A DNA stretch of 64,000 nt, from the NCBI GenBank assembly GCA_964187785.1, contig OZ076409.1, positions 3,102,001-3,166,000 on the forward strand, in the 5' to 3' direction. Under the pieces are notes generated by a model. That model ran no database searches, was not told the DNA's origin, and saw only the letters and a program-made list of their open reading frames with translations. A program made the translations under genes and the position numbers. How positions within the stretch are numbered: the stretch's first letter is position 1; each line of letters begins with the position of its first letter. The DNA is from Amphiscolops sp. MND2022. Lineage: Eukaryota. This document shows, piece by piece, positions 35,701 through 64,000 of the stretch.

Positions 35701-36227
35701 ACTAGATAAAAGAATGTATACAACTGTTAAAATTGTTAAAAGTGATATTTTCCTGAATGAGAAGAAAAACACATTTGCTAGAGAGTTGTTCAAGCAAGAA
35801 AGAATTCAGCAAAAACAGTTTAGTCTTGTAAGAAACTGACAAAAAGGGTTGCTTGTAGGAGTTTTCCAAGATCTTGAATCTATCTGGCAAGTTCTTAGAA
35901 TGTCTGTATACATCAAATTACAGAGCAACGGAAATACTAACATTTGTATCAATTGATAAGACTAATAGCTCAAGGTCCATCACATTTAAGAATTTTTCAA
36001 ACAACCAACTAAAATCGATCATCTTGAATAATTTTCCGCCATGAATTCTATTTTCCATGATTTGCCAGAACATTGCTCATGATTCGATATTACCGAAAAT
36101 TTTTCTGTTTAGAGAAAAACTCTTCTGATCTGTTTCTTTTTTGGGTGTCAGGGCATTTCGTCCTATACAATTTCCACCTATGCAATTTCAACCGTTGTCA
36201 TTTCAACCGCTCACAGTTTCAACCTAT

Positions 36228-36456
36228 TGTTGTATTCTCGATCTCTACGGTAAAAACGGGTGTGTATTCTAGAAAGTAAACTATATCTCCTTTCGTATTA
36301 ACTGTACTTTGGTTTCTCAATCTAACATAATGGTATATAAATAGCACAACATAAATAGACAGCGTTTAGAGTTTGTTTGTAAATAATGTCAGTCTCTATG
36401 TCTAGGTCCGTATGTTACGGTGCACGTAGAGGTCACGACGTTTGTATGATGTCACA
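36228..36456 (-). repeat. 3' LTR (229 bp) of a decayed Gypsy element, with adjacent PPT (36457-36466)
   Basis: TG..CA termini; minus-strand GGAAGAGGGA immediately precedes the LTR; located downstream of the integrase remnant. Confidence 0.65.
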
Positions 36457-45200: not shown

Positions 45201-45253
45201 TTCAATTTTAATTTATTTGTTTTCTATGCAATTGTCTAACTTGCAAAACGCCA

Positions 45254-47551
45254 TGTCGAGCCCCACTGTGTGGGCCGGCTTTGAAGGACCTTTCGAAGTT
45301 GATGGCCGATTTTCACTGTCTGTCTTACTTATAACGGCCATCATTAAGTCCTTCAGTTGACTAAACTCATTTTGTAACTCGTTTATCTTTCTTTCATAAC
45401 TCTCTTTTATTTCAGACAACTGAGACGAGATGTCAGAAGTTTCGTTACTATCGGAGTCATTGGCAGATGACTGGGCCATGTCTGGATTAATTGGAATAGA
45501 TGTTTCAGACGAAGAACTAATAATTTTACCACTTCTGAGCTCAGTACCTTGTTCTGGATTCATATAGACGAGGGAAAAGGATTATGAGTGAAGACTGGAT
45601 TATCTGAAATGTTATTGCGATGTATTTTGCTGTTCTATTCGATTTGTAATCCCTAATTCACTAAATTTGATCAGAGATGTTTTAACGATGATTAGTATAA
45701 ATGAACAAGTCGTAAAGAAAGTAGCAGGAAATTAGTAAGGTGAATAGGAAAGTTCATCCAATGTTCATCGCAGTTGTAAGTGTGTCAAAAGAGATTACTC
45801 AGTTTTTCAGTATTATAGTTTCTGAAGATGAAAATGAGATGTCTTTTCAAGTAAAATTCGACGTGAGGTGTTCAACTGGATTGTAGCTTGTCGCAATTTC
45901 GGTCTGAGTAATCGCTAATGGCGGTCCAAAATACAGCAGTTCACGTGTCTTTTCATGCTGGTAAGACGCTAAATCTCTTACCAGCCGACTCTTATTGGCT
46001 ATTGCCAGTTGGTGCTAATTGGTAAGTCACGTGACCGGTGTTGTGAACTGCCGCAAGTTGGCCAAACCACATGGTACATCTACATATGCTAATTATGACT
46101 AATCATCACTTTACAATGTCGCAATTACCTGCACGCAGCATCTTGGTTTCTATAGCAACTCAAATCATTCAATAATGTACTAATTTCAAGTCAAACCAGA
46201 GTAAACTGTATCACAGGATGGGAAAACGATGTTTTCCAACTAATTCCAGCACTAAAATCAATACTTCAAAACTAAAGATGGAAATGCGATGAATTTGTCA
46301 GAGTATTTGCTGATTTTCAAGCCTAGTTTAGCTCTGGATGAAAATGCGATGAATGGTGGTCCTTTCGCTCGAAAATCAACACGATATAAACTGACGATGA
46401 TAAAAGGATGAACTCGTCTTCAAAATGAACGATTTCCAGCACAATTTAAATCGACGATGGTAAAAGGATGAACTCTCCTCGAAAATAACTAATTTCCAGC
46501 ACTAGTGAAATTGACGATGAATTCAGGATGAATTCGGTCGATAAAACAGGTGAAGCAGTTAATTCTACAGTAAAGACAAATGTACGATGAGCTTAGGATG
46601 AATACATTCAATAAAACAGCAAAATCAAATGTATCAAATTCCAATGATGAGTTTAGGATGAACTCGTGAATTAAAACAGCAACTATCGAAGCAATTCAAA
46701 CTAGCGATGAGTTTAGGATGAACTCATCCACTAAAATGGTAAATCTCAACACAAGATGAAATCATGATGAATTAATGATGGATTTGCTAAACAAATCAGA
46801 TAACCAGCGCAATCACTCTTTTTTAGGATGGGTTAAGGATGTACTTTCTCATTTCTCTTCTATGCTAGTATGACGATGAATAAAGGATGTCTTACTGTCC
46901 TTAAGAAATGAGAAGCACATTTGTGAGTTTCTACATGAAATATGACGATGAATTAGTGATGAGTTTTACTAAAATGAGTCCCGTAAAATCCGCTGATGGA
47001 TTTATGATGAAAGGTAAAGTTTATTGTCCCATGCGTGGTTCATTCGCAATCTCGGAGATGGGATTGCGATGAACTTAATTAACAGCACCAGTAAATCCGC
47101 TGATGGATTTAAATGAAATCAAATCAGTATCATCACTAAATTAGACGATGAATTTGTGATGTATCTTTGATGAGATTTGTCACAACTACAAACTCTGAGG
47201 CGGGGAGCTAGTAGAAGTTATAACTTTCATCGTTTCTATATCTCGCGGTCCAGTCTGACCAGAAAACTTCTCTCCCTTGTCGTGACAAACCAATATTTAA
47301 GAAAAGTAGCACGTCTAAGGCTAATGGCAAGATCATTTATGCGGACACCGGAACTAGAGCGCTCAGTATTAAGTAGATATATATAAATCACACTCAAAGG
47401 GGGGAAGGGATTAAGGTACAAGTAACGTAGGGTTGCTCACAACCATGGCTCTTATTATATGACTTCATATTGCCCATATCTAAGTACATAAGACATAATA
47501 TTTACATCACAGATATTTAGTAGATTATATTTCCATCATGCTGGCATGACA
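45254..47551 (-). repeat. 3' LTR (~2298 bp)
   Basis: Left edge fixed by comparison with the other copy (TGTCGAG). Right edge inferred from the TGTC...GACA terminal inverted repeat at 47548-47551; not confirmable within the window. Confidence 0.8.
46217..47172 (+). repeat. Phased array of GATG-N7-GATG motifs (~16 units, period mostly ~60 bp, variable spacers) in the LTR
   Basis: First GATG at 46217, 46277, 46337, 46396, 46456, 46516, 46586, 46646, 46706, 46766, 46827, 46875, 46947, 46995, 47057, 47147. Duplicated in the 5' LTR from 63254. Confidence 0.92.
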
Positions 47552-48686
47552 CTCCCGGGGGTGGGATTTGGACTGAGAGTGCAGGGGCCAAATGTGCAGA
47601 GGATGGTTGTCTCGGCGTTGGCTTCGACTGTTTCCTTCGTTTTGTTGGGGAGAAAATGGCCTTCGTTAGTTCTGAACTGGCATGTCCTTCGTTTGTTCTG
47701 TCCTGTGAGAGCTTCTCTGAGAAGAGGACCTTCGGTAATCGTCTTTTTCTGGCATCATTCTGGGTGATTTCGGTTAAAATTTTCGACGCGGCAACTCTAA
47801 TTCTTGGTCCATCGAATGTCCGCTGATCTGCATTTTATTGGTTGTCATGCTTTTGACGGGAGTTTCGGCTGGTTATTTTCGGTAGAAGCTGATTTCTCGG
47901 AGAAAAGTTTCCCTCCAAAACGCCTACGCTGAATAAACAATTCGATTAGCTTCATTGACAAATTGGCAGCGAGTCGGGGATGAATGAACGATGAATTGTT
48001 TGCTCAGCGAGACATCGATGCTGGTTTAGCGGAATGGCTGGCGCCATTGCTTTGTTTACTCGCGATGGAAAGGAGATGAATCGTCGTCATAGCAACTGTC
48101 AAAAGTTACTCCCGCTGCTCGACTTTTGAGTGAATGAGAAAGAGATGAATTCGTCGCCATAGCAACTGTTGCTCGATCTGATTGGCCGAGACTGAATTTA
48201 TGACTGAAGGAAATTACAACCGGTTGTCAGCAGCATTCTCATCCATAAATCATCCTCCATTCAAGTCGGTTTGAAAATCGCCACGATTTCCTTTGCGCGT
48301 TTCCGCTCAACTTCGTCGGCATTGATCTGAGACTGGCAGCTGTCAACAAATCAAATACTTGAAGTTTTTTGTCAAGTCCTTAGGAGGGGACGATTCATTT
48401 TCAGGGAAAGCTTGAGTTGGCTGTACTGGGAAGAAAAGTGATGTCAGTATTTGAAATCGGAGAGTTTTTCATCGATTTTTCATCTTCTGAATTCAAGTAT
48501 TTGATTAACATGGCATTCAAGCTGCGTCGCGCTCTTTGAAATCTTCTATTGAATTTGTTCTTTTGTAATCATGGTTGATCAGGCCATTTAATTACTGATC
48601 AAATTCTCTGTTCCTGGATTCTTCGATTTCTTTCCTTCTTTCACCTTCTTCCATTCTTTTCAGATTGTTTCTGCAATTTCTTCACG

Positions 48687-50141
48687 ATGTCGGATATCAA
48701 CTCCGTCTATTCGTTACCGGAGACCGAGGCCACAGAAAGTAAGTGCACTATTTTTCTCTTCTTCACAAACGGGTCGGGGAATAATTAGGAACTGAAGGCG
48801 TGTCTTGGTTTTAGCGGACTCCGTTCACTCTGTCGGCATCATTTCCGAGCTGACTACATTGCAGACAGTTCCGCCTCAAGAGGCTCCAATCCATGCAGCA
48901 TCTCACGCACCTCAGTATCAACCCGAGCAGCAAATTGAACAGGCCCCTAACGTCCCGTATCTTCCGCAGTGTAAGTACTATCCTTCCATTCTTCAGTTCA
49001 GTCTTCGAATCCCTCATATCTCATCCTTACTTCGTCCAGCGCGACTCCTTTTCGTACGGTGTTTCAGACCACTACCCTTGGTATGCCTCCCTCGGCAGCA
49101 TCACCTTCGGGTGGTATGACCGCCACATGCGGGACATGCTGCGGGACAGCATCCAGCAGTTCAGTGAGTTTGTCAATTTCCTTTTCACTCCTCTAGGCTA
49201 TCGTCCGAACACTCCGATGTGATTCCAATGTAAACATCTCATCTGCATGTAGTGTCCTTTGCAGCCGATTACCCATGTAATTCATTTTTAAGATGAATTT
49301 AGGATGTGTCATGAACATTCACAGCTCTTCATGGCTGACTCGCTGTAAATCCCATTTTTGAAGATGAGTTTTGGATGAATTCTTCTCCGGTCTTCTTTCT
49401 TCGCGCGGCGTACGCGCTCTTTCTTCTCCAATCGTCGTCGTCCAGTAACTGTTTCTTCTTTCAGGCCCCACACCGATCCACGCGCCAAGGCCTCGTCCAA
49501 TCAGCTACTCCGTCGGAGTAGGGACGAGTGATTTCGTCACAGCTAGTGCTGATGCTAGCACTCAAGGAGGGCCCCCTCCACTAGAGTTGTCCTCTTTCCT
49601 TCAGGACCTGTCACTAGGTGCAGTGAGTTCTCCTGTGATGAGGGCTTCCGCCTCCGTCCTCTCGCCGAACTTCCATCGGTACCTCGACGCTAGTGCCTCT
49701 CCCAGAAGTCCTCCTCCTCCACCTCGCGTCACAGTTGACACAGCTGCAAATGCCGTTGTTGATTGCATAGATGCAGCCGTTGATGCCTGTGTGGATACTG
49801 CGGACAAGGAGGTCCAAGCCGTTATTGAGACTGCTGATGGTTCCACTTGTTATGAACCCCAGGTGGAGACTTCCCTGTCTGCTTCTCCTCCTCCACCGAT
49901 TGCTGGTGTTCCAGGGGCAGTTGACGTTGACGTTGACCCGTCCGAAGTTCCCTCAGCTGGCACCACCGAGACCCAACTGGAAATCCCTGGCGATCTCTCA
50001 TTTCATAGTCCTTCATCTGGCGTGTCTGCTCCAGGAAGTATTGCGTCCAATGTGGCTACTGCCGACCTCGAGACGTCTCCAATGGGACCCAGCCTGTTGG
50101 ACTCCGATGACGAGCCCATTGCATCTCGTCTGCCAGGTTAA
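48687..50141 (+). CDS. Accessory gene A (antisense to gag-pol): ~326-aa Pro/Ser/Asp-rich, probably disordered protein; exons 48687-48738, 48815-48970, 49068-49163, 49465-50141
   Basis: Donors GTAAGT, GTAAGT, GTGAGT; acceptors TTTTAG, TTTCAG, TTTCAG; all phase 1. The 981 nt join into one open frame from MSDINSVYSLPE to ...IASRLPG*. Confidence 0.7.
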
Positions 50142-50724
50142 CTAAACAGCTTTAAACCGGTGAAGTATCTGATCAGTAGATTTTCATTCGTTTCCTTCTT
50201 CGTTTTTACTTTCGCTAGCATTTTTCACGTTTTTCTCTTTTCTATCCATTTTCCATCGTTTTTCTGTTTTCACTATATGGTTTTCTGCAGTTTTTCATTT
50301 TTCATCATTTTCTCATCGTCAAAAGTTTTGAACAATAGTTTTTTCGCTCTCTGGTCCTTTTTTAGAACTTTTCATCTCTTTTACATCTTTAAAATTTCTC
50401 GTTTCGGTTTTCGCTATCTTTCAGTGTTTTCTTTTCAGTTTACATCTCTTTTTCATCGTTAAGTTGTTTTTCGCTCTAAAATATCTCAAATTTGGTTCAA
50501 AGTCGTTCTATTCATCTCTTTTTCATCGTTCGAGGCTATCATTCTTTAAGGTTTCCATTTTTCATTCTGGTGGTCTGCAAACACATCTCTTTTTCATCTT
50601 TTCATTTTTTCTTCGTTTTTCGCTTGTATTTCCGATGAAAATATTGTTTTACATCATTTTTTCATCACTCGGGGTGAACTTTTTGATTTTTACGTTTTAC
50701 CTTTGCATTTTTCGGTTTTTGAGG

Positions 50725-53384
50725 ATGTTCATAAGATGTGGTATGTTGCTGTGTGCTTTTCGATGGTGTTTGATATGTATGCTGTTGTGTTAAAACAGGG
50801 CGGAAACGGATCGCTCGGAGCTGGTTCAATCACGTGTACTGTGGCTTAGCTATTGGATACGCGAAATATCATCAGTCCCGTGAATCTTATGTGAGGTGCT
50901 TGTTGTGCAAGCGGGACATAAAGGTTGCAAGTCGTGGCATCACGACTTTTATGGAACATTGTCGGGGCGTCCAACATCACCGCCTCGATTGTCTGGTTCG
51001 GCTTAGACGCGGGCTAGCATTGCGGGATCGTGACGGCAATCTGATGTCAGTGTCGGACAGTGTGGCTCAATCAGCTTTGTTGGAAGGAGTGAGTGTGCCT
51101 ATTGTTGAGCGTTGTCCAGATGTTACTCCAGCAGAAGTTTTCCAGATGGAACTCGCAGAGAAACCTGTCTGGGAAGATCTAGAACAGGACGAATCGGAAG
51201 GCCAGGAACGTACTGTGCGGCTGTTCCTGTGTCTGGTGATTGATGCTCTATACCGGGACTGTGACCTGCTAAGTGTATGTGGATTATGGGAGCTAATGGT
51301 GGCGACCGATGCGCAGCACTTGACCATGTTTGGACGGAGGTGTCGACTGGATGATATTGTGGTAACTATATTTCTATTTCATTAGTTGTAACTAGTGGCG
51401 AATGGGCGGCAAATATAAGATTGACTTGTGTGGTTTGCATATGTTCCTGAGTTTGCAGATTTGATTTTTGTACAGTATTACATTTGTGTTTTAGGGCGTG
51501 ATCATTTTGGGTTTGTGGCCCTTCGTCATGCGGCGTCTGATTGCTTTGTGGAGTGAGTCGACGTTCAGTAGCTTCTCCATTGGCATCGTGGCGGACAGGG
51601 TCGTTGGGCGCGTGAGCATGTGTAGTTCAGAAGGGGTCTCGCAGTATATCCTGTTTTCCTTTAGCTACACGCAGGATTGGGAGCCACGATTAGTTTCATG
51701 GATTGTGAACCTGCTTTGTGGTGCTCTGAGTGAGATCTGTCCCCTAGGCCTAAATTGTGAGCTGTTCCCGCAGTTATATCGTGTCTTGTGCTCAAGTGCC
51801 GGAATTGGGACGATTAGCTTAGTACCCGTTCGACTGGCTGACATCAATCGACTTATAGTGGCTGCGAGCGCGAGAGTTCTTGGGGGCACCGACGTGCATG
51901 TCATCCTTAATCACTTGCAGTCTAGACTGAAGCCCTATGTGAAAGATGACCTGTTGTTGTCCTGTCCCAAACTGTTGCGGGTGAGTATCATAGAGCTTTG
52001 TTTTATCGAAGTTTATGGTTGTAATGGACTCGCTATGTATTATGTTTTGTGGGGGGGGGGGTTGGTATCTTTCCGTTAATAAAACTGTTTTAACTTGTGA
52101 TTTGTTTTTATAGTCGGTCTTAGAAGGCGAGGTGTCTTTGTGGGACGTGCCTGACGTTCTCTCTGAATTGCGTGAGAAGTGGCCTTTCATTTGCGGTTTA
52201 CTGAGGACACCTGATGACGAGGGAGATGTTGATCCGCTAGACTATGTGCTCTGTGGTGATCCTGGCGTCGCGATGCGGCTTCATGTCTTGAGTCTTGTTC
52301 TCCGTGCTCGTGAGTATTCTTGTATTATTTATTTCGTGTGTTTGGTTCGGGCGGCTAAGTCAGTATTGTGTGCAGGGGGGTTGGATTGGTTTGCAAGTAG
52401 GGTGTGAAACGTGTGCACAATTCTTATTCGCTTTTTGTTGTTTCAGTAGTGACTGCGTACCAGTGGAGTTTCAGCGACAGTGCAATTCGCGGGTGTCACT
52501 GGGCATATGAGAGCGCATGTTTTGTACGAGCCCTGTTGGTCTATGTGGTGGACGAGTCGGTCTTACCTCCAGTGACAGATGTACGTGCTTTTCTGAGCTT
52601 GGTTGTGTCTGGATTGGAGTTGAGTGGACCCAAATTAGAGTGGTTGCGGGGGCGGTTTGCAGTACACTCCGACGACTATGCAAATCTAGCCCAGTTCGAA
52701 GAGGATTTAGTGCGAGTGCGGAATTTCTTGCTTGCGGTCGTTGACGAAGTGCTCAATGTGAAGGGACTGAAGGATGAGGTGACATTCCACCTCAGTATCT
52801 GTTGTCCGGTCATTCTAGCAGAGGCAGAGACAGAACTTGTGGTTCAGGAGGCAAGCCGTTTCACGGAGTTACTTCTGGACCTCAAGCGAATCACGTCAGC
52901 TGAGCGGAGACGGATGGATCGCGACATGCCGAACTTTGTGGCCAAGTATCGCAGTCTTGTGAGCCCTGAAGTATTAGCTACGGCTGGTACTGAGATCGAC
53001 CTGTTCCGGGCGTGTGCTAGTGAATCGTCAGTTCGCTTCCTTCGATTCCTATTATGCTTGTGTGAAAGTCCGCAGTTTCCGTTGGAAACGAAATGTGTGC
53101 AAGTGGGTCACATGTCTAGTGATGTGACCAGCAGTGTGTGCGCTACGGTCGTCAGTTACTTGAAGGCACATCGAATACGCTTGTACGAGAGTGTTGAAGG
53201 GCCGCTATTGGATGAAGTCTCAGAAGCAGTTGGGCGTATCACGGATCTGTCAGATTTCACGGAGGAGCTCCTATGGGATGACATTGGCATCGTCGCGAAT
53301 GAAGATTACCGGCGTCATATCTATGAACAGTTAGGATATGAAGTGGATGGAGAGCGAGCAATGAGCCCAGAGATCGGCAATTAA
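50725..53384 (+). CDS. Accessory gene B (antisense to gag-pol): ~732-aa protein with N-terminal C2H2/BED-like zinc finger; exons 50725-50740, 50799-51361, 51495-51980, 52114-52309, 52447-53384
   Basis: Donors GTATGT, GTAACT, GTGAGT, GTGAGT with matching AG acceptors; phases 1,0,0,1. The 2199-nt open frame links four separately called ORFs. Motif CLLCKRDIKVASRGITTFMEHCRGVQHH. The first micro-exon is the least certain part. Confidence 0.8.
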
Positions 53385-56001
53385 CTTTGAATGTTGCAAA
53401 CTCAGTTGATTTAGATTTTGTATTATTTGTATTATTGTTTTTGTAGTATTAGTTCTTTAATGGATTACCAACATTGGGTACGGCCTCTGGATAGAGAGGG
53501 GAGAGAGAGAGAAAATTCTGCTACGTCGGAAAGATCGGTAGTAGTGTATTTACAACAATAGTTATTTTGGTGCCCAATATCTGTTTTTCTTTTGAGTTGT
53601 TAGTGATAGTTACAGAGGATATTAAGTACGTGTAAATCAACAAGTTCGTCCAACAGTTCACTTGAAGCATTGTCATCGGTATTTTTGTATCCTAGATCAT
53701 CGGTCGCGCATCGCTTTTTTGGTGTTCATCGTTATTACATCTCGTGGGAGTGTAAGTAATTCGTCAGCGTTTGATTTTTGATTTCTCATCTCATTTTCAT
53801 CACGTTTTCCTCGGTCGACCGTGCGACGTCGTGGAACCTGATTTTGTCATCGTTTTTACATCTTTCGGTGCGTCAGAAACATTGCATGTTGTTACATGTG
53901 GTTTTTCTACATATTTCATCATTTTTTCATCTTGCGTTTTGATTTCAGCACTTTCGTGCGTTATTTGCTATAGTTCATCGTTTTTGCATCGCCAGTTTGT
54001 CTTGTCCAGTTTTTGCTCATTTTGCTGTATAGTTCATCTTCTTTTCATCGTGCGTTTGAAATGTACGAATTTTGCGTGTTTTCGATGTTATTTGGCTATA
54101 ACGTAAGCAGGGGTTGCATTTTTCATGTCTGGGGGAAATTTTTATTAATATTGCGGTGTTTCGGAGTGTTTTCTTCATGTATTTTAGCGTTATACGGTTA
54201 TAACCGTTTGTCGTGTTTTTGAATTTGCATGAATTTTATGGTACATGTGTTTTGATCATCGTCGTCATGTTTCTAGTTTGTCAACTACGGAACGTCATTG
54301 CATGTATTTTTAGTTCGAATTCTGGTGACCGCCGCTTGCGTGGCAGTCGAAAATAATTTCACTCAGCAGTGGTACTGATAGCCTGTAGGCGTGCAAGGTA
54401 CTAGTGGCTTCAGTCCAAGGCTGGGTGAGTGGAGCTGCTCCGCTCCTTTCAGATGAATGGAATCTCGTAGTTTTGGGCTATATATAGTCTATATGTCATT
54501 TTTGCGGTTGGTTGTTTGCCATTATTCGTCGAAATGGGTTTGTCCATTTGACGGTCAGTCCGCTCAATTAATATGATTGACAACTACGGTTATGCATGTG
54601 TCCAGTTTTAGACTATCTGTTTCTTGTATTTGCATGTATGGATTGTTACATGATGTGTTCCTTTAAATGGGTTGCCCCATTATTGACATGTCGTTATATG
54701 TTCGGTGTTAGTTTCATGTGTTTTGATTTGATATTTTTATTTTCGTTCATTTGGACAGGGCTTTGTCGTCACAAAGCCCCTACAAAACTAACTGAGAATC
54801 CACTAGCCGCTGGATAACCAACGCAGCAAGCTTCATCCGAATATGGTTGTGAGCTCCCCGCCTCAACTAACCAGCACTCTTTTCAGAGAAATGCCAGCCA
54901 GCACGAAGGAATGTTTTGAGCTTTTCGATAGGGGTGTTTTGTATGTTATGAGCTGATGTTTACTGGGGGGTGCTCACTCCTTTGTTAGTTTTGTAGGTGT
55001 TTCGTCAGTTCTTATATTTTGCATGTAAGTTAGTAGGCTTCATGTATTTTCGATTGTTTGTTTCATTTTTATTCGTCTAGGTTTGGAATGCTTTGGTGTG
55101 AATTGCATATATTATCTCATTCATTTTTGAACGGTACATGTATATTTCGGTGCGTTGCTCATTTGTATTGCATGTAGTTTGGAATTGTTAATTTCTTTCG
55201 TGACGTCATTGATTTGGCAGGTCTTTGAACTTTACATGTATTGATCATTTCATTTTTGTGTCGCATAATTCTGTTTGCATGATTCGAAATAAAGTCGGTT
55301 GTTTTTTATCGTTTCGTGGAGTTACATGTTGTTTGAGAATTGGCTGATTTATTGTGATGTTATGTTGATGGTGTTTCCCATCACAAGGAGGTTTTGGTAA
55401 GTCATTTAATATTTTCGAATTTCCATTTAGACTAAATTCATCGTTTTGACATCCTCCAGCGAAGCTAGAGTATTGTGTAAGGTTAACGATAAATTCGGTC
55501 ACGATTTGATGGTAGTGCCCATCACAAATTCATCTCGTTAATTGATTTCATGTAATTTATGAATAATTGGATCTAGTTCATCACTATTTCATCCTCTAGC
55601 CGAGCTAGAGTCTTATGATAGCATGAACGTGAGTGCGTTCGCATTCTGATGGTATTTTCCATCTCGAATGCATCGCTAGTAAATATTGCATGTTGATTGG
55701 TCGAATTTTTGGCTGAGTTCATCACTTTTTCATCTCTCGTGTGTCTGAGCTAAATTTTCAAGTGGTTTTATCCTTTTTTCATTTCGAATTTTTGTGTGTT
55801 ATTTTTTCCTGGTTTTTTGGTCGTTTTTCATCCGCTTTACATCGTGCTTTGTTTTTATACGTTTTTCATGTGATTTTTAGTAACTTTTCATCCATTTTAC
55901 ATCTTCATGTGTTTTTTAAGTTAAAATTGCATGTAATTCGTTCGCTTTTGTGATCTGTTCATCCGTAACACATCTCAAATTTAAAATGAGAGTTTTCTTG
56001 G

Positions 56002-59000
56002 CTAAATCGTTACGTCTATTTTGTTGGTCTTTCTCAGTGCGTTTCTAGCTGAAGTAATCTCATGAATGAGGAAGTCTGGATACTTTTTCGGTGTAGGGTT
56101 CTCACGTAACCTGTACCTACTTTGATTTGATCTAGACGGTCTAGAACTCATCCTTTCTTCATCTTCATTTTGCGTGTTTGTCTGTTGTGACTGATTTTCG
56201 TGTTGTTCGTCTCTCAGAGGTACTCTTATCCTACTCTCATCGCGGGGAGGCGGTAGAATAATTTCTTCTCGCGTTCCAAATCTAACTGTAGGTGGTCTAA
56301 AGTTGTTGTGGTCAGTTTCTACTTGCTGATAGTCTATTCTCGTGGTTATTTCTGGTGGAATTACTTGTGGAGTGTGTTGTTCTTGTACCCGCGGAATTAT
56401 TTCTTCTGAAGGCTCTTCTTCGACTAAGTCTTGATCTAGATTGTCATTCTCATTCTGATCTACCTCGTCGGTCGTCGGAATATTCGAGTCGAAAATGTCC
56501 GTGTCTTCAACCCTTTCGGTGTCTGGGTAGAGATGTTTGGACACGTTGATGTCGTCAATCGGAAATTCCGGTTTGAACAATCTCAGTCGCATGCGATGTA
56601 CGCACTGAGTTTGGTGTGTGCCTACTTTGCGGATGATGTAGTTGCTATCGGATAGCACTTTAATCACCTTGTACGGTCCTTTCCAATGGAAAGTTTTAAA
56701 CTCTTCTTTGCTTCTCTGAGAGTCGTACTTAGGATCTAGTAGGAACACAAATTCATTCACCTTCAGTGGCTGTGCTCGTGCTTTTCTATCATAGTACGTT
56801 TTGTACTTGTGATAGGCGGAAATGATGTTATCTAGATTGTCTCTGAAGATAAAATTCATTTTGTCTAGAATTTCGTTCACGTCCTTACACTTTGTTTCAG
56901 CCGGTTTGTTTGCGTTTCGGAATTGCAGATCTAGTGAGTTGTATGGTGTTCTTCCGTGGAAAGTTTCAGTTGGTGAACATTTCAGTGAATCATGATACGT
57001 TGTGTTATGGGCCATGATTGCTATGTCGACATAGCGGTCCCATTGTGGTCTGTCTGCGTTTACACTAATTTTAAGGATCTTTTTCAGTTTCGCGTGCGTT
57101 CTCTCCACCATGCCTATTGTCTGCGCGTGCTTTATCGTGGCATGGGAGATGTGAATATCAGCCGCTTTCGCGATTTCAGACAGAAGTTCAGCCGTGAACG
57201 CCGTGCCCTTGTCCGTCAGAATGTGTTTGGGCACATACGCGTGTTTTGTGAAGATCGACAGTAATCCTCTGACTACGGAATGTGTATCAGGTCTCTTCAG
57301 CGGAACGGCGAACAGGTAGCGCGAGAAAACGTCAACAGCCGTCAGAATGTGTGTAAAACCGTTCGATGCCGGGAGTGGACCAACGATGTCTATTTCCAAC
57401 AGGTCTTCTGGTCCGTCGCACGGGTCGTAGATTTTTTGTAACGGTGGACGTAGTTGCGTTTCTTTTACACTTTTAGACTTCATGCAGTTTTCACATCCGT
57501 CAAGGACTTTTTGAACTTTACAGGCTAAGTTGGGAGAGTAATATCTTTTACGAAGTTCATACAACATTTTCTTTAAACCAGGGTGTCCTTGTACCGGGCT
57601 GTTATGTAGAGTCCTAATTATTTTCAAAATACAGTCTTCAGGAACGACTAACTGCTTGTGAGACTCTAGTCCCGTGTGATCAAAAAACTGTCTGTACAAG
57701 ACACCGTTTACAACTTGTAGGCGTTTTCGATTTTTGTACAACTTTTGAAAAAACTGGTCTTGCATATTAACTGGGTGTTGCAAAATTTCAGTACCTTCTA
57801 AAAATCTAATCATTTTTTGGATAACCCAGTTATTTTTCTGGACTTGAATTAGATCGATCCCCTCGGCGGGGCTAACCTGACTCCTTACCGGGTGTGATAA
57901 TGATACTTTACGGATGAATTGCGAGAGTTGAATTGGCTCGTCCACGTCTGTGAGGCGGTACGTCAGATGGTTGTCAGTCGCGAAGTCATCTGAGGCCGCT
58001 GTTCTCTCACAGTTGGTGAACTTCATCCCTTTCCCATCGTCATGAGCCACGTCAGTGCCAGTTGCCAATTTCATCTCTTTGACATCCTTCTGGCGTTTGC
58101 ATCTGAGTGGTTCGCTCGCGGGAAAGTAATCAGGCTCGTCTTCCTCCTGTTTTGGTGTACGGGAGGCGATGTCGATCTCGATTCTGTGAATTGGAATAGT
58201 ATCAGTCAATTTTAAATGTACACGGTCTTCAGGTCTAATCTCAAGCCGAGATAAGTAATCCGCTGCGGGATTTTCAACTCCTGGAACATGTGCTAATAGA
58301 AAATTGAACTGAAGGGTTTGATCGCAAAAATTCCAAAGTGATGGCGGGATATGCTTCGCCTGGAAAAATCTAGTCAAGGCCTTATTGTCAGTCATAACAA
58401 TGATGGGTTTTTTCGCACCCCACAAAATGTGGCCAAATTCATCGAAGGCAAAGTGCATAGCTAAAAACTCTTTGGCATACATTGTTAGAGACATCTGGCC
58501 GCCCTGAATTTTCTTAGAGCCAAATGCAACAGGGGCGTATGTATGTTTGACTGACGGGTCTGCATAATCCTCGATTAACAACACATAGCCGGCAGCGTGT
58601 TCGCTGGCGTCACACATGATTACCAATTGTTTATCTGGTAATGGCAATTTCAGAGACACTTTTGTTGCTTTTAACAAACTTTCATTAATTTCAAAAATAG
58701 CATCTTTATGTTGTTGGTTCAGCTTGAAAGGGACGTCTTTCTTGATGAGTTCTTGTAAACAACAAGTTTTATCAGCTAGACGGGGAATATAAGACCTGTA
58801 AAAGTTTACAAAACCAAGATAACGTTGCAACGCTTTCACTGAATTAGGGGGTTTCAACTTGGTTAAATAGTCTGTTACGCGTTTTTCGATGGGAGCAATA
58901 CCAGTGCTAGAAATGGTTTTTCCCAAGTACTCAATTTGTTTTTGTCCAAATTCACATTTACTCATGCTAAGTTTAAGACCAGCTTTGTGCAATTGTTGAA

Positions 59001-61095
59001 AAACAAGTTCAAGGTTAGTAATCAATTCTTCGGGTGAGTGTGCTGCAATTCCAATATCGTCAACATATTGGGCACAGCGGTCCGCTTTGACCAAGGGGTC
59101 CAAATACTCACGGATTACTCCTGTGAATGCTGACAAAGAACGATTAAGACCTTGTGCTAGACGTAAAAATGCAAAAGTTCTAGACCCAAAATTAAACGAT
59201 AACAGTTGGACAGATTGCTCATCGGCCATTGGAATGCAATGGTAGGCCTGGGAACAATCAAGTTTGCAGAAGTACTTTTTCCCGGCCATGTGTTGGGCAG
59301 CGTCAGCAATTGTTGTTACGGGATGATTGTGCTCACCGTAATCGTTTTTGATCAGGTGGTTTATTCTTCTCAAGTCAACTAAAATCCTCAATTTACCATT
59401 AGGTTTACGCTGAGCAAATATCGGGGAAGAGTATTTGCTGTGAGGCAAAGTAGTTATAATCCCGTACTCTTGCATTAGAGCTAACTCCACGAGCAAATCG
59501 TCCTTCAAATTTGTCGGAGTCGGGAGACTTTGTGAATAAACAGGTTCTTCATGTTGAGGTGTTAACTTAACTTTAAAATCAGTGTTCATGCCAATATCAA
59601 AACGATGTCTAGCAAAAATGGAGTTGTACTTTACCAGCAACTCCTTTACCTGTAACCGTTGAGACGGAGTAAGAAGCGAGTCGTCCCAGTTGAAGTTCTT
59701 CAGGAAGTTCATCCGTTGTTCATCGGATTGGGACGGGTCAAGCTTCTCGAGCTCTCGCAGTGCCAGAATCTCATCATAAATCCGTCGCTCAATTGCGTTG
59801 AGTTTGTCTGGCTCACTGCACGTCTCGGGAGTTGGGTACCACTTGGTTGACTTCATTTCAGGGTTCACGAACAGTTGGTTGATCACTGCTTCGGCTTCAT
59901 CTGGGTACTTGGTGATCAAGTTCAAGTGTTCCACTGGCATGGGCGTGATGTTTGCCGCCTGGTGTGGTGTCGGGATGCGAAAGTGTGCCAGAGTGGTATT
60001 GGCTTCAAGTGTGTACGTGTGGTTGTTTGGGTTGGTGACCTGGATTGTCGTCTTGCCCTCGTCTAGGTCAACCAAAGCTGGAGAAACAAGCAAACACGTC
60101 TTTCGCATGAATCCAGGTGAGCCCTCAACTGTACCAGTTGTAAGTGAGATGTCCTCGTCACTGTGGACCTGTATCATCACTTGATGGAGAGGAGGGATCA
60201 CTGTTCTAGTACTGGAACACAAATCAATTAAACCAGTTTTGAATCTGTTGTTCTTTTGCTGTCTAACTTGCATGGACATCATGTGATTAGGGAAGTGGAC
60301 AAGGTGGTTTTTGATGTCTAAGTTGACTGAGTACTTTTCAAAAAAGGACATTCCAATTAAAATTGTTCCCATTGTTGGAAGGATTAGGAACGTTTCTTCA
60401 AATACTTTTCCAGCAACGCAAAATCTAAGTAAGACTTGCTTACGCACTGGGACTAAGTTCCCGTTTGCTATTTGAATTTTGAAATTCGGAGGGGGGAATT
60501 CTTGAAGGATGGCTTCTGGATGAGCCGTTGTTATTTTTCGCAATTCGGCTCCAGACATTGCACTTTGTATTGCGCCTGTGTCTAAAAGTGCGCTGTTTTC
60601 GTATTTGTCAAACTGAAGAGGGACGTAAAGCATTTTATCTTTTTTGTTTAAATGTAAAGTGGGACTGAGAACGTGAATTTCTGTTTTAGTTGCATGTTTT
60701 TTAGCTTTTGAAGCGTTAATACTACTCTGTTTTGCATGTTTTTTAATACTAAGCCGTTTGTCGATTGTTGAGTGTGAAGTCGAGTCGTCGTCTAGATGGT
60801 GGGTTTCCATCTCTTTGGCATCTTCCACCTGCCTCATGGTGTTTGGTTGCCAGTTCATCGTTTGTTCATCGTTGATTTCAGCGAGTGAAGAAAAGCGGCT
60901 GCCGTTGAGTTGACGTGCATTTCTCATCGCTTTTTCATCGTTGGAAAGTCTTCGCTGATAGACGTCGTCAGCTTTTGGTCGTTTGTCCAGTGAAGGCTGC
61001 CATTTCTTCATTGGACGGTTGTGAGTCTGTTGTTGAGTCGTCAGTCGTTTGTCGCGCGTGTCGTTGGTAGCGGACGGAAATCGTGGCGGAATCAA
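56002..61095 (-). CDS. pol: Pol polyprotein (protease, RT, RNase H, integrase), probably expressed as Gag-Pol by -1 frameshift
   Basis: 1697-codon ORF: LLDTGA (PR), YVDD (RT), CDAS/TDNKAL (RNase H), H-x6-H..CENC zinc motif, DIVGP/TDKG/ERTH catalytic triad, WKGPY (GPY/F motif). Confidence 0.97.
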   Translation of the reverse strand: MIPPRFPSATNDTRDKRLTTQQQTHNRPMKKWQPSLDKRPKADDVYQRRLSNDEKAMRNARQLNGSRFSSLAEINDEQTMNWQPNTMRQVEDAKEMETHHLDDDSTSHSTIDKRLSIKKHAKQSSINASKAKKHATKTEIHVLSPTLHLNKKDKMLYVPLQFDKYENSALLDTGAIQSAMSGAELRKITTAHPEAILQEFPPPNFKIQIANGNLVPVRKQVLLRFCVAGKVFEETFLILPTMGTILIGMSFFEKYSVNLDIKNHLVHFPNHMMSMQVRQQKNNRFKTGLIDLCSSTRTVIPPLHQVMIQVHSDEDISLTTGTVEGSPGFMRKTCLLVSPALVDLDEGKTTIQVTNPNNHTYTLEANTTLAHFRIPTPHQAANITPMPVEHLNLITKYPDEAEAVINQLFVNPEMKSTKWYPTPETCSEPDKLNAIERRIYDEILALRELEKLDPSQSDEQRMNFLKNFNWDDSLLTPSQRLQVKELLVKYNSIFARHRFDIGMNTDFKVKLTPQHEEPVYSQSLPTPTNLKDDLLVELALMQEYGIITTLPHSKYSSPIFAQRKPNGKLRILVDLRRINHLIKNDYGEHNHPVTTIADAAQHMAGKKYFCKLDCSQAYHCIPMADEQSVQLLSFNFGSRTFAFLRLAQGLNRSLSAFTGVIREYLDPLVKADRCAQYVDDIGIAAHSPEELITNLELVFQQLHKAGLKLSMSKCEFGQKQIEYLGKTISSTGIAPIEKRVTDYLTKLKPPNSVKALQRYLGFVNFYRSYIPRLADKTCCLQELIKKDVPFKLNQQHKDAIFEINESLLKATKVSLKLPLPDKQLVIMCDASEHAAGYVLLIEDYADPSVKHTYAPVAFGSKKIQGGQMSLTMYAKEFLAMHFAFDEFGHILWGAKKPIIVMTDNKALTRFFQAKHIPPSLWNFCDQTLQFNFLLAHVPGVENPAADYLSRLEIRPEDRVHLKLTDTIPIHRIEIDIASRTPKQEEDEPDYFPASEPLRCKRQKDVKEMKLATGTDVAHDDGKGMKFTNCERTAASDDFATDNHLTYRLTDVDEPIQLSQFIRKVSLSHPVRSQVSPAEGIDLIQVQKNNWVIQKMIRFLEGTEILQHPVNMQDQFFQKLYKNRKRLQVVNGVLYRQFFDHTGLESHKQLVVPEDCILKIIRTLHNSPVQGHPGLKKMLYELRKRYYSPNLACKVQKVLDGCENCMKSKSVKETQLRPPLQKIYDPCDGPEDLLEIDIVGPLPASNGFTHILTAVDVFSRYLFAVPLKRPDTHSVVRGLLSIFTKHAYVPKHILTDKGTAFTAELLSEIAKAADIHISHATIKHAQTIGMVERTHAKLKKILKISVNADRPQWDRYVDIAIMAHNTTYHDSLKCSPTETFHGRTPYNSLDLQFRNANKPAETKCKDVNEILDKMNFIFRDNLDNIISAYHKYKTYYDRKARAQPLKVNEFVFLLDPKYDSQRSKEEFKTFHWKGPYKVIKVLSDSNYIIRKVGTHQTQCVHRMRLRLFKPEFPIDDINVSKHLYPDTERVEDTDIFDSNIPTTDEVDQNENDNLDQDLVEEEPSEEIIPRVQEQHTPQVIPPEITTRIDYQQVETDHNNFRPPTVRFGTREEIILPPPRDESRIRVPLRDEQHENQSQQTNTQNEDEERMSSRPSRSNQSRYRLRENPTPKKYPDFLIHEITSARNALRKTNKIDVTI

Positions 61096-62600
61096 AAACC
61101 CTGATTTATGTCTTCATCAGAGTAGCTTTCTTGGTCTTCTTCTTCGGCAACTGCTTGCATAGGGTTCATCGGCTTTTGTTGTCGTTTTAAATCTTGTCTT
61201 CTAGTTTTGTTGTCATCTTGTGAATTCGTTGCGTATGGAATCTTTCCATATGCAGAACTGCTTTCTTTAGGGACGCGTCGTCTGCAACCCCTTGCTGAGT
61301 GGCCTGTGTAACCGCAAATCTGGCAGACCAATTTTGGATTGTATTTCGGCTTATCTGGATCGGCTGCTTTCTTCATTGGGATTGCATCCTCCTTCTTTAT
61401 GCCGTTCGCTTCGTCTCGTTGTCGGGCGCGACATTCCGTTTTGCGGTGTCCTGTCTTTCCGCAGTAGAAACATTGTCCCTCAAATCGTTTTCGTTCTGTC
61501 GGTTGCGTGGTCGTCGTTGTTGTTGTGGGCTTCGTCGTTGTAATCGTAGGTGGTGCTGAGGAGGTGACCGCGTTAAATGGTTGGATTGCCGTAGGTGGCG
61601 CGACGTACTGCTGGTACTGGTATTTTCGCATTAGGTAGGTTTTGATTTCCTCTGGGGAGCTCTCTTCTTTGTTTGCCATAGTGAGCTCTTGTTGAATCTC
61701 GACTGGCAGTTTTCCAAACAAGAACATTTTGATTATTCTGTCGGCCTCATTGCCGAAGGCTTGTTTGGCAGTCTTCTTGAGATTTTTGAGGAAATCTCCG
61801 AATGTTTCTGTTGTGGGATCATAGCGTGCTTGGTCCCATTTGTAACGGGCCACTTCCTTTAGATCCTCTTTTGCAAATTCTTTTCTGAAGAGGTCGAGTA
61901 CATCCTTTAGTGTTGTCATTGGCGTTATCTGGATGGATTGCCAGTATTCTATTGCGTCATCTCTCAAAAGGCTTTGAAAGAAGTGTAGTTTGTTCTCCTC
62001 GGTGATTTTGTTGGCAAGCGGGCTAAGGTGGTTGAGGAGAAGGTGCTCAAATTCGACGAATTTGTCTTTTTGGCCTCTGAAATTTGGCACGTGTGTCTGC
62101 AGAAGCTTCGTGTTGGTGGTTGTGTTTTTGATCCGTTGGGGGATCGTCTCGATTGCATAGAGTAGTCGTTCCTCATTGCTTCTGGGGGTTGATTCTCCCT
62201 CTTCGTCTGAATCGTCTTCTTGGTAACTTCTGAAGTTGGTGAAGCTGGTTGTCGGGCGGGTGGAGCGGGTTTCTGTAGCTCCTGTCACCATGTCGAGCCC
62301 CACTGTGTGGGCCGGCTTTGAAGGACCTTTCGAAGTTGATGGCCGATTTTCACTGTCTGTCTTACTTATAACGGCCATCATTAAGTCCTTCAGTTGACTA
62401 AACTCATTTTGTAACTCGTTTATCTTTCTTTCATAACTCTCTTTTATTTCAGACAACTGAGACGAGATGTCAGAAGTTTCGTTACTATCGGAGTCATTGG
62501 CAGATGACTGGGCCATGTCTGGATTAATTGGAATAGATGTTTCAGACGAAGAACTAATAATTTTACCACTTCTGAGCTCAGTACCTTGTTCTGGATTCAT
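61092..62600 (-). CDS. gag: Gag (502 aa) with two CCHC zinc knuckles; starts inside the 5' LTR
   Basis: CFYCGKTGHRKTEC and CQICGYTGHSARGC; capsid-like central region; N-terminal coiled-coil; directly upstream of pol. Confidence 0.93.
   Translation of the reverse strand: MNPEQGTELRSGKIISSSSETSIPINPDMAQSSANDSDSNETSDISSQLSEIKESYERKINELQNEFSQLKDLMMAVISKTDSENRPSTSKGPSKPAHTVGLDMVTGATETRSTRPTTSFTNFRSYQEDDSDEEGESTPRSNEERLLYAIETIPQRIKNTTTNTKLLQTHVPNFRGQKDKFVEFEHLLLNHLSPLANKITEENKLHFFQSLLRDDAIEYWQSIQITPMTTLKDVLDLFRKEFAKEDLKEVARYKWDQARYDPTTETFGDFLKNLKKTAKQAFGNEADRIIKMFLFGKLPVEIQQELTMANKEESSPEEIKTYLMRKYQYQQYVAPPTAIQPFNAVTSSAPPTITTTKPTTTTTTTQPTERKRFEGQCFYCGKTGHRKTECRARQRDEANGIKKEDAIPMKKAADPDKPKYNPKLVCQICGYTGHSARGCRRRVPKESSSAYGKIPYATNSQDDNKTRRQDLKRQQKPMNPMQAVAEEEDQESYSDEDINQGF
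61095..61101 (-). other. -1 ribosomal frameshift slippery heptamer G GGU UUU
   Basis: Gag ends CAG GGT TTT TGA. The -1 frame reads GGG TTT TTG ATT CCG into pol and is closed by TGA TGA four codons upstream. Confidence 0.8.
62279..62290 (-). other. Primer binding site TGGTGACAGGAG
   Basis: Begins with TGG immediately after the terminal CA of the 5' LTR. Primer tRNA not determined. Confidence 0.75.
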
Positions 62601-64000
62601 ATAGACGAGGGAAAAGGATTATGAGTGAAGACTGGATTATCTGAAATGTTATTGCGATGTATTTTGCTGTTCTATTCGATTTGTAATCCCTAATTCACTA
62701 AATTTGAACAGAGATGTTTTAACGATGATTAGTATAAATGAACAAGTCGTAAAGAAAGTAGCAGGAAATTAGTAAGGTGAATAGGAAAGTTCATCCAATG
62801 TTCATCGCAGTTGTAAGTGTGTCAAAAGAGATTACTCAGTTTTTCAGTATTATAGTTTCTGAAGATGAAAATGAGATGTCTTTTCAAGTAAAATTCGACG
62901 TGAGGTGTTCAACTGGATTGTAGCTTGTCGCAATTTCGGTCTGAGTAATCGCTAATGGCGGTCCAAAATACAGCAGTTCACGTGTCTTTTCAGGCTGGTA
63001 AGACGCTAAATCTCTTACCAGCCGACTCTTATTGGCTATTGCCAGTTGGTGCTAATTGGTAAGTCACGTGACCGGTGTTGTGAACTGCCGCAAGTTGGCC
63101 AAACCACATGGTACATCTACATATGCTAATTATGACTAATCATCACTTTACAATGTCGCAATTACCTGCACGCAGCATCATGGTTTCTATAGCAACTCAA
63201 ATCATTCAATAATGTACTAATTTCAAGTCAAACCAGAGTAAACTGTATCACAGGATGGGAAAACGATGTTTTCCAACTAATTCCAGCACTAAAATCAATA
63301 CTTCAAAACTAAAGATGGAAATGCGATGAATTTGTCAGAGTATTTGCTGATTTTCAAGCCTAGTTTAGCTCTGGATGAAAATGCGATGAATGGTGGTCTT
63401 TTCGCTCGAAAATCAACACGATATAAACTGACGATGATAAAAGGATGAACTCGTCTTCAAAATGAACGATTTCCAGCACAATTTAAATCGACGATGGTAA
63501 AAGGATGAACTCTCCTCGAAAATAACTAATTTCCAGCACTAGTGAAATTGACGATGAATTCAGGATGAATTCGGTCGATAAAACAGGTGAAGCAGTTAAT
63601 TCTACAGTAAAGACAAATGTACGATGAGCTTAGGATGAATACATTCAATAAAACAGCAAAATCAAATGTATCAAATTCCAATGATGAGTTTAGGATGAAC
63701 TCGTGAATTAAAACAGCAACTATCGAAGCAATTCAAACTAGCGATGAGTTTAGGATGAACTCATCCACTAAAATGGTAAATCTCAACACAAGATGAAATC
63801 ATGATGAATTAATGATGGATTTGCTAAACAAATCAGATAACCAGCGCAATCACTCTTTTTTAGGATGGGTTAAGGATGTACTTTCTCATTTCTCTTCTAT
63901 GCTAGTATGACGATGAATAAAGGATGTCTTACTGTCCTTAAGAAATGAGAAGCACATTTGTGAGTTTCTACATGAAATATGACGATGAATTAGTGATGAG
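62291..64000 (-). repeat. 5' LTR (partial; truncated by the window end)
   Basis: Near-identical to 45254-46963. Confidence 0.95.

Follow-up and report, generated by a model that had tools for sequence, protein, structure and literature searches.

The window analysed here is a stretch of 64,000 nucleotides (nts) from the genome of Amphiscolops sp. MND2022 (assembly GCA_964187785.1, contig OZ076409.1, positions 3,102,001 to 3,166,000 of the forward strand). Its right-hand part is occupied by a retrotransposon of the Ty3/gypsy type with long terminal repeats (LTRs), 19,335 bp in total, which lies on the minus strand and carries, in its LTRs, its internal spacers and its coding sequence, one exact bipartite motif, CATC-N7-CATC, called the dyad below. 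The element is young. Its LTRs (45254-47551 and 62291-64588) are 2298 bp each, have TG...CA termini and differ by 6 mismatches; they form a direct repeat with an offset of 17,037, which runs from 45251 to past the window end, and the right boundary was resolved by adding 5 kb of sequence beyond that end. The 3′ LTR (45254..47551, minus strand) thus lies within the window, while the 5′ LTR (62291..64000, minus strand) continues for 588 bases past it. The target-site duplication, CGCCA, has its left copy at 45249..45253 and its right copy 589-593 bases past the window end. The initial annotation had called an LTR retroelement here, which the paired LTRs, the target duplication and the gag-pol domains bear out.

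A TGG... primer-binding site follows the 5′ LTR on the minus strand, where the junction reads ...ACA followed directly by TGGTGACAGGAGC. The gag gene (61092..62600, minus strand, 502 codons) encodes CCHC zinc knuckles, with two matches to zf-CCHC, and pol (56002..61095, minus strand, 1697 codons) encodes a protease with a DTG motif, a reverse transcriptase (RT), an RNase H and an integrase. The Pfam domains of pol are ordered RVT_1 (residues 563-728), RT_RNaseH (820-924), Integrase_H2C2 (1151-1209) and rve (1229-1319), with the integrase C-terminal domain last. The Pfam search of pol gave no protease match; an LLDTGA protease motif is readable in the translation. No env was detected in the element, the homologues of pol bear no informative name (the one name listed is “hypothetical protein”), and no Rfam family reached its gathering score across the 64-kb window. 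In the LTR, a TATA-like motif occurs only at positions 167-169, upstream of the dyad array, and AATAAA is found at 527 and 2141. The Gag ATG lies within the LTR, at position 1989 of 2298, so that each LTR holds the first ~103 Gag codons (62291-62600 and 45254-45563, both on the minus strand). The assembly comprises 1.07 Gb, in which an initial search returned 675 candidates for the region of array 1 (see below) and 1219 for the last exon of the antisense gene.

This antisense gene lies on the plus strand, opposite in direction to gag-pol. The initial annotation had described two separate genes, A and B, which turn out to be exons of a single spliced gene. Joined at GT-AG junctions with pyrimidine tracts, the antisense blocks give one frame of 1013 codons with a terminal stop only. 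The gene has at least five exons, and its introns measure 662, 133, 49 and 50 nts. Exon A (49449..50136) is of low complexity and fast-evolving, and probably begins in reality ~17 nts further in, at a TTTCAG acceptor. It is followed by intron 1 (50137..50798; GT-AG, 662 nts), which holds array 1, by exon b1 (50799..51361), which encodes a C-x2-C-x16-H-C-x4-HH candidate zinc finger (BED-like) and a helical domain, by exons b2 (51495..52064) and b2′ (52114..52396), and by the last exon, b3 (52447..53384), which ends in the stop codon. The start codon is located outside these five mapped exons, which are probably preceded by further exons around 48.6-49.2 kb.

The gene was followed in ten further copies of the element, all from the same genome. 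The plus-strand open reading frame (ORF) blocks are kept as protein in all relatives, and over 100 genomic copies, with identities of 50% to 100%, retain b3 as an open frame. Exon ends were inspected directly: all eight lineage-I copies have G/GTTA[AC]C as the donor that follows exon A, and an AG precedes the last exon in 10 of 10 copies, even in those of a sister lineage in which that exon is 26-27% identical; the remaining junctions are mostly kept. Introns are therefore conserved across lineages whose exons are just 26-46% identical. As the genomic RNA is of the opposite strand, retrotransposition would leave such introns in place. The gene also contains a run of 11 G at 52050-52062 (plus strand), at the end of b2 and directly before the donor, where the relatives differ and which is likely a hotspot of length slippage. 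In comparison with L031-L033 and L025-L027, the region corresponding to 49449-53700 behaves as a hypervariable cassette: pol is 98% identical in amino acids to that of the window, whereas the antisense exons are 47-60% identical and give no nucleotide (BLASTN) match to those of the window. This implies either recombination between lineages or diversifying selection.

No Pfam family was found at threshold for the antisense protein. However, exon b1 contains the BED signature Cx2C...Hx3-5[H/C], and C33, C36, H53, C54, H59 and H60 are invariant or near-invariant among 26 relatives, eight of which match zf-BED (PF02892) below threshold (best E 0.0022); the window protein itself matches at E 0.094 and 13.2 bits, under the gathering cut-off of 20.6. 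The language-model neighbours of b1 in the ESM Atlas, which are leads only, score 0.91-0.94, with zf-C2H2_12 and zf-BED clusters at 0.91-0.92. The AlphaFold model of b1 is confident (pLDDT 85.7) and b3 is modelled as a helical domain, while Foldseek found nothing at E<=0.001 for either. Support for a BED-like finger in exon b1, which comes from sequence signatures and models, is thus weak but recurrent. For the last exon, the ESM Atlas gave no usable match; 63 relatives are present in the representative library, and the ten clusters looked up all lack a name. Searches of viral_contigs and metagenome_contigs yielded no relatives of the antisense protein.

CATC-N7-CATC has 77 matches in the window, 75 of them within the retrotransposon. 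In 100 dinucleotide-preserving shuffles of the window, the mean was 1.79 and the maximum 6, and none reached 77. Over the part of the element scored for gap length (the 18,761 bp that start at 45240 and reach the window end), the gap of 7 occurs 32 times on the plus strand and 43 times on the minus strand, compared to 0-6 times per strand for any other gap from 0 to 39. The flanking host DNA (45,239 bp) contains 0 and 2 matches at gap 7, both of the latter overlapping in a CATCATC run. The initial annotation had listed 25 positions, all of which are exact matches, and had proposed the comparison of gap lengths, in which gap 7 alone proves enriched. The 21 dyads that it placed in three internal clusters are on the plus strand as it claimed; among the four isolated copies that it named, 48470 is on the plus strand and 47979, 49292 and 49363 are on the minus strand. 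Dyads beyond its list are found at 48064 (minus), 48240 (plus), 50724 (minus) and 55356 (minus), in addition to eight in the gag-pol coding sequence.

Written in full, the bipartite site is TTCATC-N5-TTCATC(G), i.e., two direct half-sites exactly 11 bp apart. With sites oriented CATC...CATC, the consensus is aAnTTCATCctaAatTCATCgtca in the LTR arrays and TtTTCATCnnTTTTtCATCnT in the interior. The information content, computed from 108 and 150 distinct 85-mers of eight elements, is confined to aAnTTCATC-N5-TTCATCgT (~21 nts) and is near zero elsewhere; likewise, the 60-70-bp units cannot be aligned outside the dyad. Tandem Repeats Finder reports a 60-bp unit, repeated 2.1-2.4 times, in the LTR only, and misses the 60-70-bp periodicity of all three internal arrays. 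So few recognisable units indicate that the repeats have drifted apart except at the dyad.

Most of the dyads are grouped. The LTR array (46217..47172, LTR positions 380-1335) contains 18 dyads on the gag-pol sense strand (minus) with a modal spacing of 60 bp, and a small LTR cluster of three dyads (minus, plus, minus; 45676..45841) lies 130-300 nts upstream of the Gag ATG. Upstream of the mapped antisense exons are four conserved isolated dyads (47979 and 48064 on the minus strand, 48240 and 48470 on the plus strand; 47979..48484), and two conserved minus-strand dyads (49292..49377) stand immediately upstream of exon A. The three internal arrays are all on the plus strand: array 1 (50303..50666; six dyads with a spacing of 68-71 bp) lies within antisense intron 1, array 2 (53698..54049; seven dyads) begins 314 nts past the antisense stop, and array 3 (55439..55974; eight dyads) ends 28 nts from the pol stop codon. 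Arrays 2 and 3 are thus positioned between two convergent genes, the antisense gene and gag-pol. Of the six relatives first compared, four give no BLASTN match to the segment 54201-54700 between these two arrays, which also lacks a conserved ORF on either strand; it is variable non-coding filler.

The distances between successive dyads fall into classes of 48-49, 59-61 (mode 60), 69-72, 79-82, 90, 101, 109-112 and 119-122 bp, and almost none of the 219 distances collected from eight related elements lies between these classes. The copy in the window, taken alone, displays the same classes; because the copies are related, this ladder is descriptive and not probabilistic. In the left LTR, 20 dyads are on the minus strand and one is on the plus strand, while in the interior 30 are on the plus strand and seven on the minus strand, the latter including the small conserved clusters 47979/48064 and 49292/49363. 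The claim that the same motif occupies the LTRs and the internal spacers is hence confirmed. The accompanying claim of an orientation flip around gene A holds in part: the LTR and internal arrays are opposed in this copy, but there is no single switch, since both compartments contain dyads on the minority strand.

Exclusivity of gap 7 is maintained in the ten relatives. Seven of them are full-length, with a pol 91-99% identical in nucleotides and with LTRs and interior only 57-90% identical, and each contains 59-75 gap-7 dyads (other gaps <=4) in matching places and orientations. Among these seven, the identity of cores compared to spacers is 0.90 versus 0.73 in the LTR array, 0.86 versus 0.70 in array 1, 0.76 versus 0.60 in array 2 and 0.99 versus 0.84 in array 3; gaps were scored as non-identical, and mis-registration of the tandem arrays could exaggerate this contrast. 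A truncated relative with a Gag 45-60% identical contains eight dyads at multiples of 60-72 bp upstream of gag. In the sister lineage (copies c3_d and c5_d), in which pol is 70-75% and Gag 54-57% identical in amino acids, 52 and 53 gap-7 dyads are found (other gaps <=5) and the motif reads ttCATCGnTTTTnCATCGT. On this comparative evidence, the dyad cores are under selection.

The sister lineage differs in the arrangement of the dyads, which form inverted pairs, GATG-N7-GATG-N9-CATC-N7-CATC, both in the LTR and in the interior. The offset is 24 in all ten close minus/plus pairs of c3_d. The inverted composites are found in L034-L036 (4228-4720 and 10433-11429) and in L037-L039, and this form with four half-sites is absent from the lineage of the window. 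Since the inverted pairs occupy LTR and interior alike, the opposition of LTR and internal arrays is lineage-specific: what is conserved is the dyad with its gap, and the flip belongs to one lineage. One low-copy relative (L028-L030, G000:C11:10052565-10076564) has two genomic matches, at 100% and 96%, and in it a homologue of the last exons of the antisense gene lies next to the truncated N-terminus of pol, gag and an LTR with dyads; the locus may represent an element that has undergone deletion, or else a gene en route to domestication.

Dyads are also present within the genes. The gag-pol coding sequence (6289 bp) contains seven dyads with CATC on the plus strand, against 0-1 for other gaps, and these account for 14 of the 32 CATC tetramers present. 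All seven are in pol (56149, 58024, 58072, 59710, 60808, 60856 and 60925) and each encodes D-x-x-x-M; an eighth, at 60508, is in pol in the opposite orientation. The seven D-x-x-x-M sites are distributed over the N-terminal part of pol, residue 458, the linker between RNase H and integrase, and the C-terminal tail. Their common codon phase is imposed by the avoidance of stop codons and is not independent evidence. Codon choice is more telling: D[GAVDE]xxM pentapeptides number eight in Gag-Pol for 0.9 expected, and seven of the eight are encoded by a dyad, compared to the 6.7% expected from codon usage, given that GAT represents 38% of Asp codons and that 18% of codons end in G. The sister lineage has dyads at the same coding places. 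No dyads are found in the exons of the antisense gene (3042 bp). The coding dyads are accordingly under selection at the nucleotide level, which overrides codon usage in pol.

The best-supported reading, to which we give about an even chance, is that the dyads are sites on duplex DNA for a sequence-specific protein. The base-exact 11-bp spacing of the half-sites fits a rigid protein geometry on B-DNA, and the 10-bp ladder, the free spacers and the symmetric composites fit protein binding to duplex DNA best. The two direct TTCATC(G) half-sites would be bound by a dimer or a higher oligomer, and the spacing quantised at ~10 bp would set successive complexes at a constant rotational position along the helix. 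Together, the arrays and the pol dyads could form an enhancer- or insulator-like cis-regulatory platform serving two convergent transcription units, gag-pol and the spliced antisense gene. The inverted pairs of the sister lineage, with their fixed offset and weakly complementary N7, look less like a hairpin than like sites for a symmetric protein complex.

Several observations weigh against this reading. The strand bias of the interior (30 versus 7, with seven of the eight coding dyads on the majority strand) is unpredicted by a plain double-stranded enhancer and points to a strand-specific, RNA-level reading. A T-rich spacer on a T-rich strand may lie behind the bias, but the excess of G over C on the plus strand argues the opposite way for the cores. 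The TATA-like motif is upstream of the LTR array, so that the array may be a transcribed leader and not U3. As for a binding protein encoded by the element, the best Foldseek match of b1 has an E of 0.68, with ZBED2, ZBED1 and ZBED3 only at E 3-6, and its best VIA match (Z 5.4) is on a helical hairpin. Finally, elements with antisense proteins only 26-60% identical have the same motif without change, hence there is no co-variation that links protein and site.

A candidate binder is the product of the antisense gene, with its BED-like zinc finger. We propose tentatively, as a possibility that we hold to be somewhat improbable, a self-recognition circuit in which the BED-like protein of this spliced, fast-evolving gene binds the ~75 dyads as an oligomer. 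Such a circuit would regulate transcription in the sense versus the antisense direction, or shield the chromatin of the element. Viral analogues are Tas, Tax and EBNA1.

An unlikely alternative is that the sites are read by protein at the level of RNA, the two CCHC knuckles of the Gag nucleocapsid, or a host RNA-binding protein, taking hold of GAUG-N7-GAUG on the sense RNA with one GAUG each. Scattered along the 19-kb RNA, the many sites would serve to tag or compact it, be it for packaging, export or stability. Retroviral nucleocapsids are known to bind short tetranucleotide dyads, e.g., the UCUG elements of MLV Psi, and Gag possesses two zinc-knuckle matches. The interior bias is precisely towards the GAUG orientation in the sense RNA, the seven coding dyads so oriented are maintained at the nucleotide level, and the dyads of c3_d outside its arrays are biased likewise (12 versus 3). 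However, the 20 minus-strand LTR dyads are oppositely oriented on the same RNA, the arrays of the sister lineage mix both orientations in fixed inverted pairs, and the exact gap and the ~10-bp ladder are properties of duplex DNA and not of flexible RNA.

Long-range RNA-RNA pairing, which the initial annotation had put forward as an alternative to DNA binding, is quite improbable. According to this explanation, LTR dyads (CAUC) and interior dyads (GAUG) would anneal to one another, so that the genomic RNA is folded or closed into a circle; in the sister lineage, this would happen locally, by hairpins. Opposed dyads are complementary by construction in their cores and TT/AA flanks, but a full LTR-interior duplex also requires identical N7 sequences, and these differ: LTR and interior share 2.55 of 7 positions, compared to 2.94 and 3.38 within each class, hence pairing gains no support from the spacers. 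The dyads at 47147 and 55520 are identical over all 15 nts, which is unremarkable among 378 pairs. The mean energy of the LTR-interior 25-mer duplexes, -13.8 kcal/mol per pair, is favourable to pairing but no better than with the cores only and shuffled spacers (-12.5), and far from true complements (-40.2). Moreover, selection for pairing would not hold a 7x7 internal loop at an exact length, and compensatory N7 changes across families were not seen. The 5′ LTR copy would be absent from the RNA if the array is in U3, and the complementarity of orientation is not conserved between lineages. The inverted pairs of c3_d could form short hairpins, and their N7 complementarity is slightly higher in cognate than in non-cognate combinations (4.25/7 versus 3.27/7, n=8).

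Two further explanations fare worse. The purine-rich GATGAAAAAnnGATGAA could act as internal polypurine tracts (PPTs), i.e., as extra plus-strand primers that speed second-strand synthesis in so long an element; central PPTs are known in lentiviruses and Ty1, and the sense strand of the interior dyads, which recur every 1-3 kb, is rich in purines, but they do not resemble the sequence abutting the 3′ LTR, and the LTR arrays in pyrimidine orientation, the inverted pairs and the exact gap are left unexplained, which makes this explanation scarcely credible. Tandem arrays are common in the non-coding regions of LTR retrotransposons (PMC11963269), and a 60-bp period is visible in the LTR, yet a neutral by-product of duplicating a 60-70-bp unit that happened to hold the motif is close to negligible as an explanation, given units diverged beyond recognition save the dyad, cores that outlast their spacers, single dyads at conserved places and in coding sequence against codon usage, and a motif that persists across lineages with a Gag 57% identical. 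An ordinary tandem repeat was rejected on the core/spacer contrast, the divergence of the units and the codon-usage result.

The closest known systems are the Retand/Tat-type elements of plants, including Grande and RIRE2, which likewise have a long region between pol and the 3′ LTR with tandem arrays, and likewise a conserved gene antisense to gag-pol, suspected to encode a DNA-binding regulator (PMC11963269, PMC7264820). The antisense ORFs (aORFs) of Grande and RIRE2 are described as of unknown function (PMC7264820), and the Retand antisense ORF contains a TRP28 domain (PF04195) in 97% of clusters (PMC11963269). No match to PF04195 was found in the antisense ORF blocks of the window at E<=1. 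The region between pol and the 3′ LTR is 8.4 kb here (47552-56001, with the antisense gene and three arrays), whereas 2.9-6.6 kb are given for Retand, and the LTR is 2.3 kb here compared to 0.3-1.2 kb. In addition, the antisense gene is spliced here, with at least four introns, whereas the word “intron” does not occur in the available text of the review of Retand-type elements. Arrays, LTR and coding sequence share one exact dyad here, a feature not found in the sections of the Retand literature covered. In the main texts covered by searches on antisense ORFs with introns and on BED fingers in LTR retrotransposons, no report of such a system was found, and a literature search with the hexamer returned primer matches only.

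Other comparisons are more distant. The Su(Hw) binding-site array of Drosophila gypsy is an insulator, and retroviral and endogenous retrovirus (ERV) LTRs contain enhancer repeats. These arrays likewise consist of one protein-binding motif with AT-rich spacers and a uniform orientation within the array; in contrast, they are single arrays at one place, while here at least eight places are occupied, coding sequence included, with helically quantised spacing, and the motif is unrelated. In HTLV-1, HBZ is a spliced antisense gene, and the foamy-virus Tas binds both the LTR and an internal promoter. The present element likewise has a spliced antisense gene and possibly a self-encoded DNA-binding regulator with sites in LTR and interior, which is putative here, but there is no sequence relationship and this is an intracellular retrotransposon without a detected env. 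The BED-finger insulator and promoter proteins BEAF-32 and DREF read clustered CGATA and TATCGATA sites. The half-site CATCG resembles TATCG, and the sites here are likewise clustered and, in one lineage, palindromic, with a candidate finger that is BED-like below threshold. The 11-bp direct dyad, however, differs from the BEAF arrangement.

Tandem repeats and antisense ORFs are thus known in such elements, and the distinctive features here are an exact dyad demonstrably under selection and a conserved, intron-bearing antisense gene with a candidate zinc finger. The functions of LTR-retrotransposon tandem repeats and antisense ORFs are described as open (PMC7264820, PMC11963269). A defined oligonucleotide and a defined 187-residue domain make the function of accessory genes and internal repeats directly testable. 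With a family size of at least about 700-1200 copies for 1.07 Gb of genome, the host chromatin would contain identical binding sites by the tens of thousands.

Outside the retrotransposon, a G+C-rich block at 36000-44000 (42-49%, compared to ~36% around it) contains several minus-strand ORFs of 141-216 codons without a Pfam match; it is possibly a further mobile element or else a cluster of genes. The host DNA on the flank also has a 306-codon open frame on the minus strand (20608-21528), which encodes a glycosyltransferase family 2 domain (E 2.9e-08).

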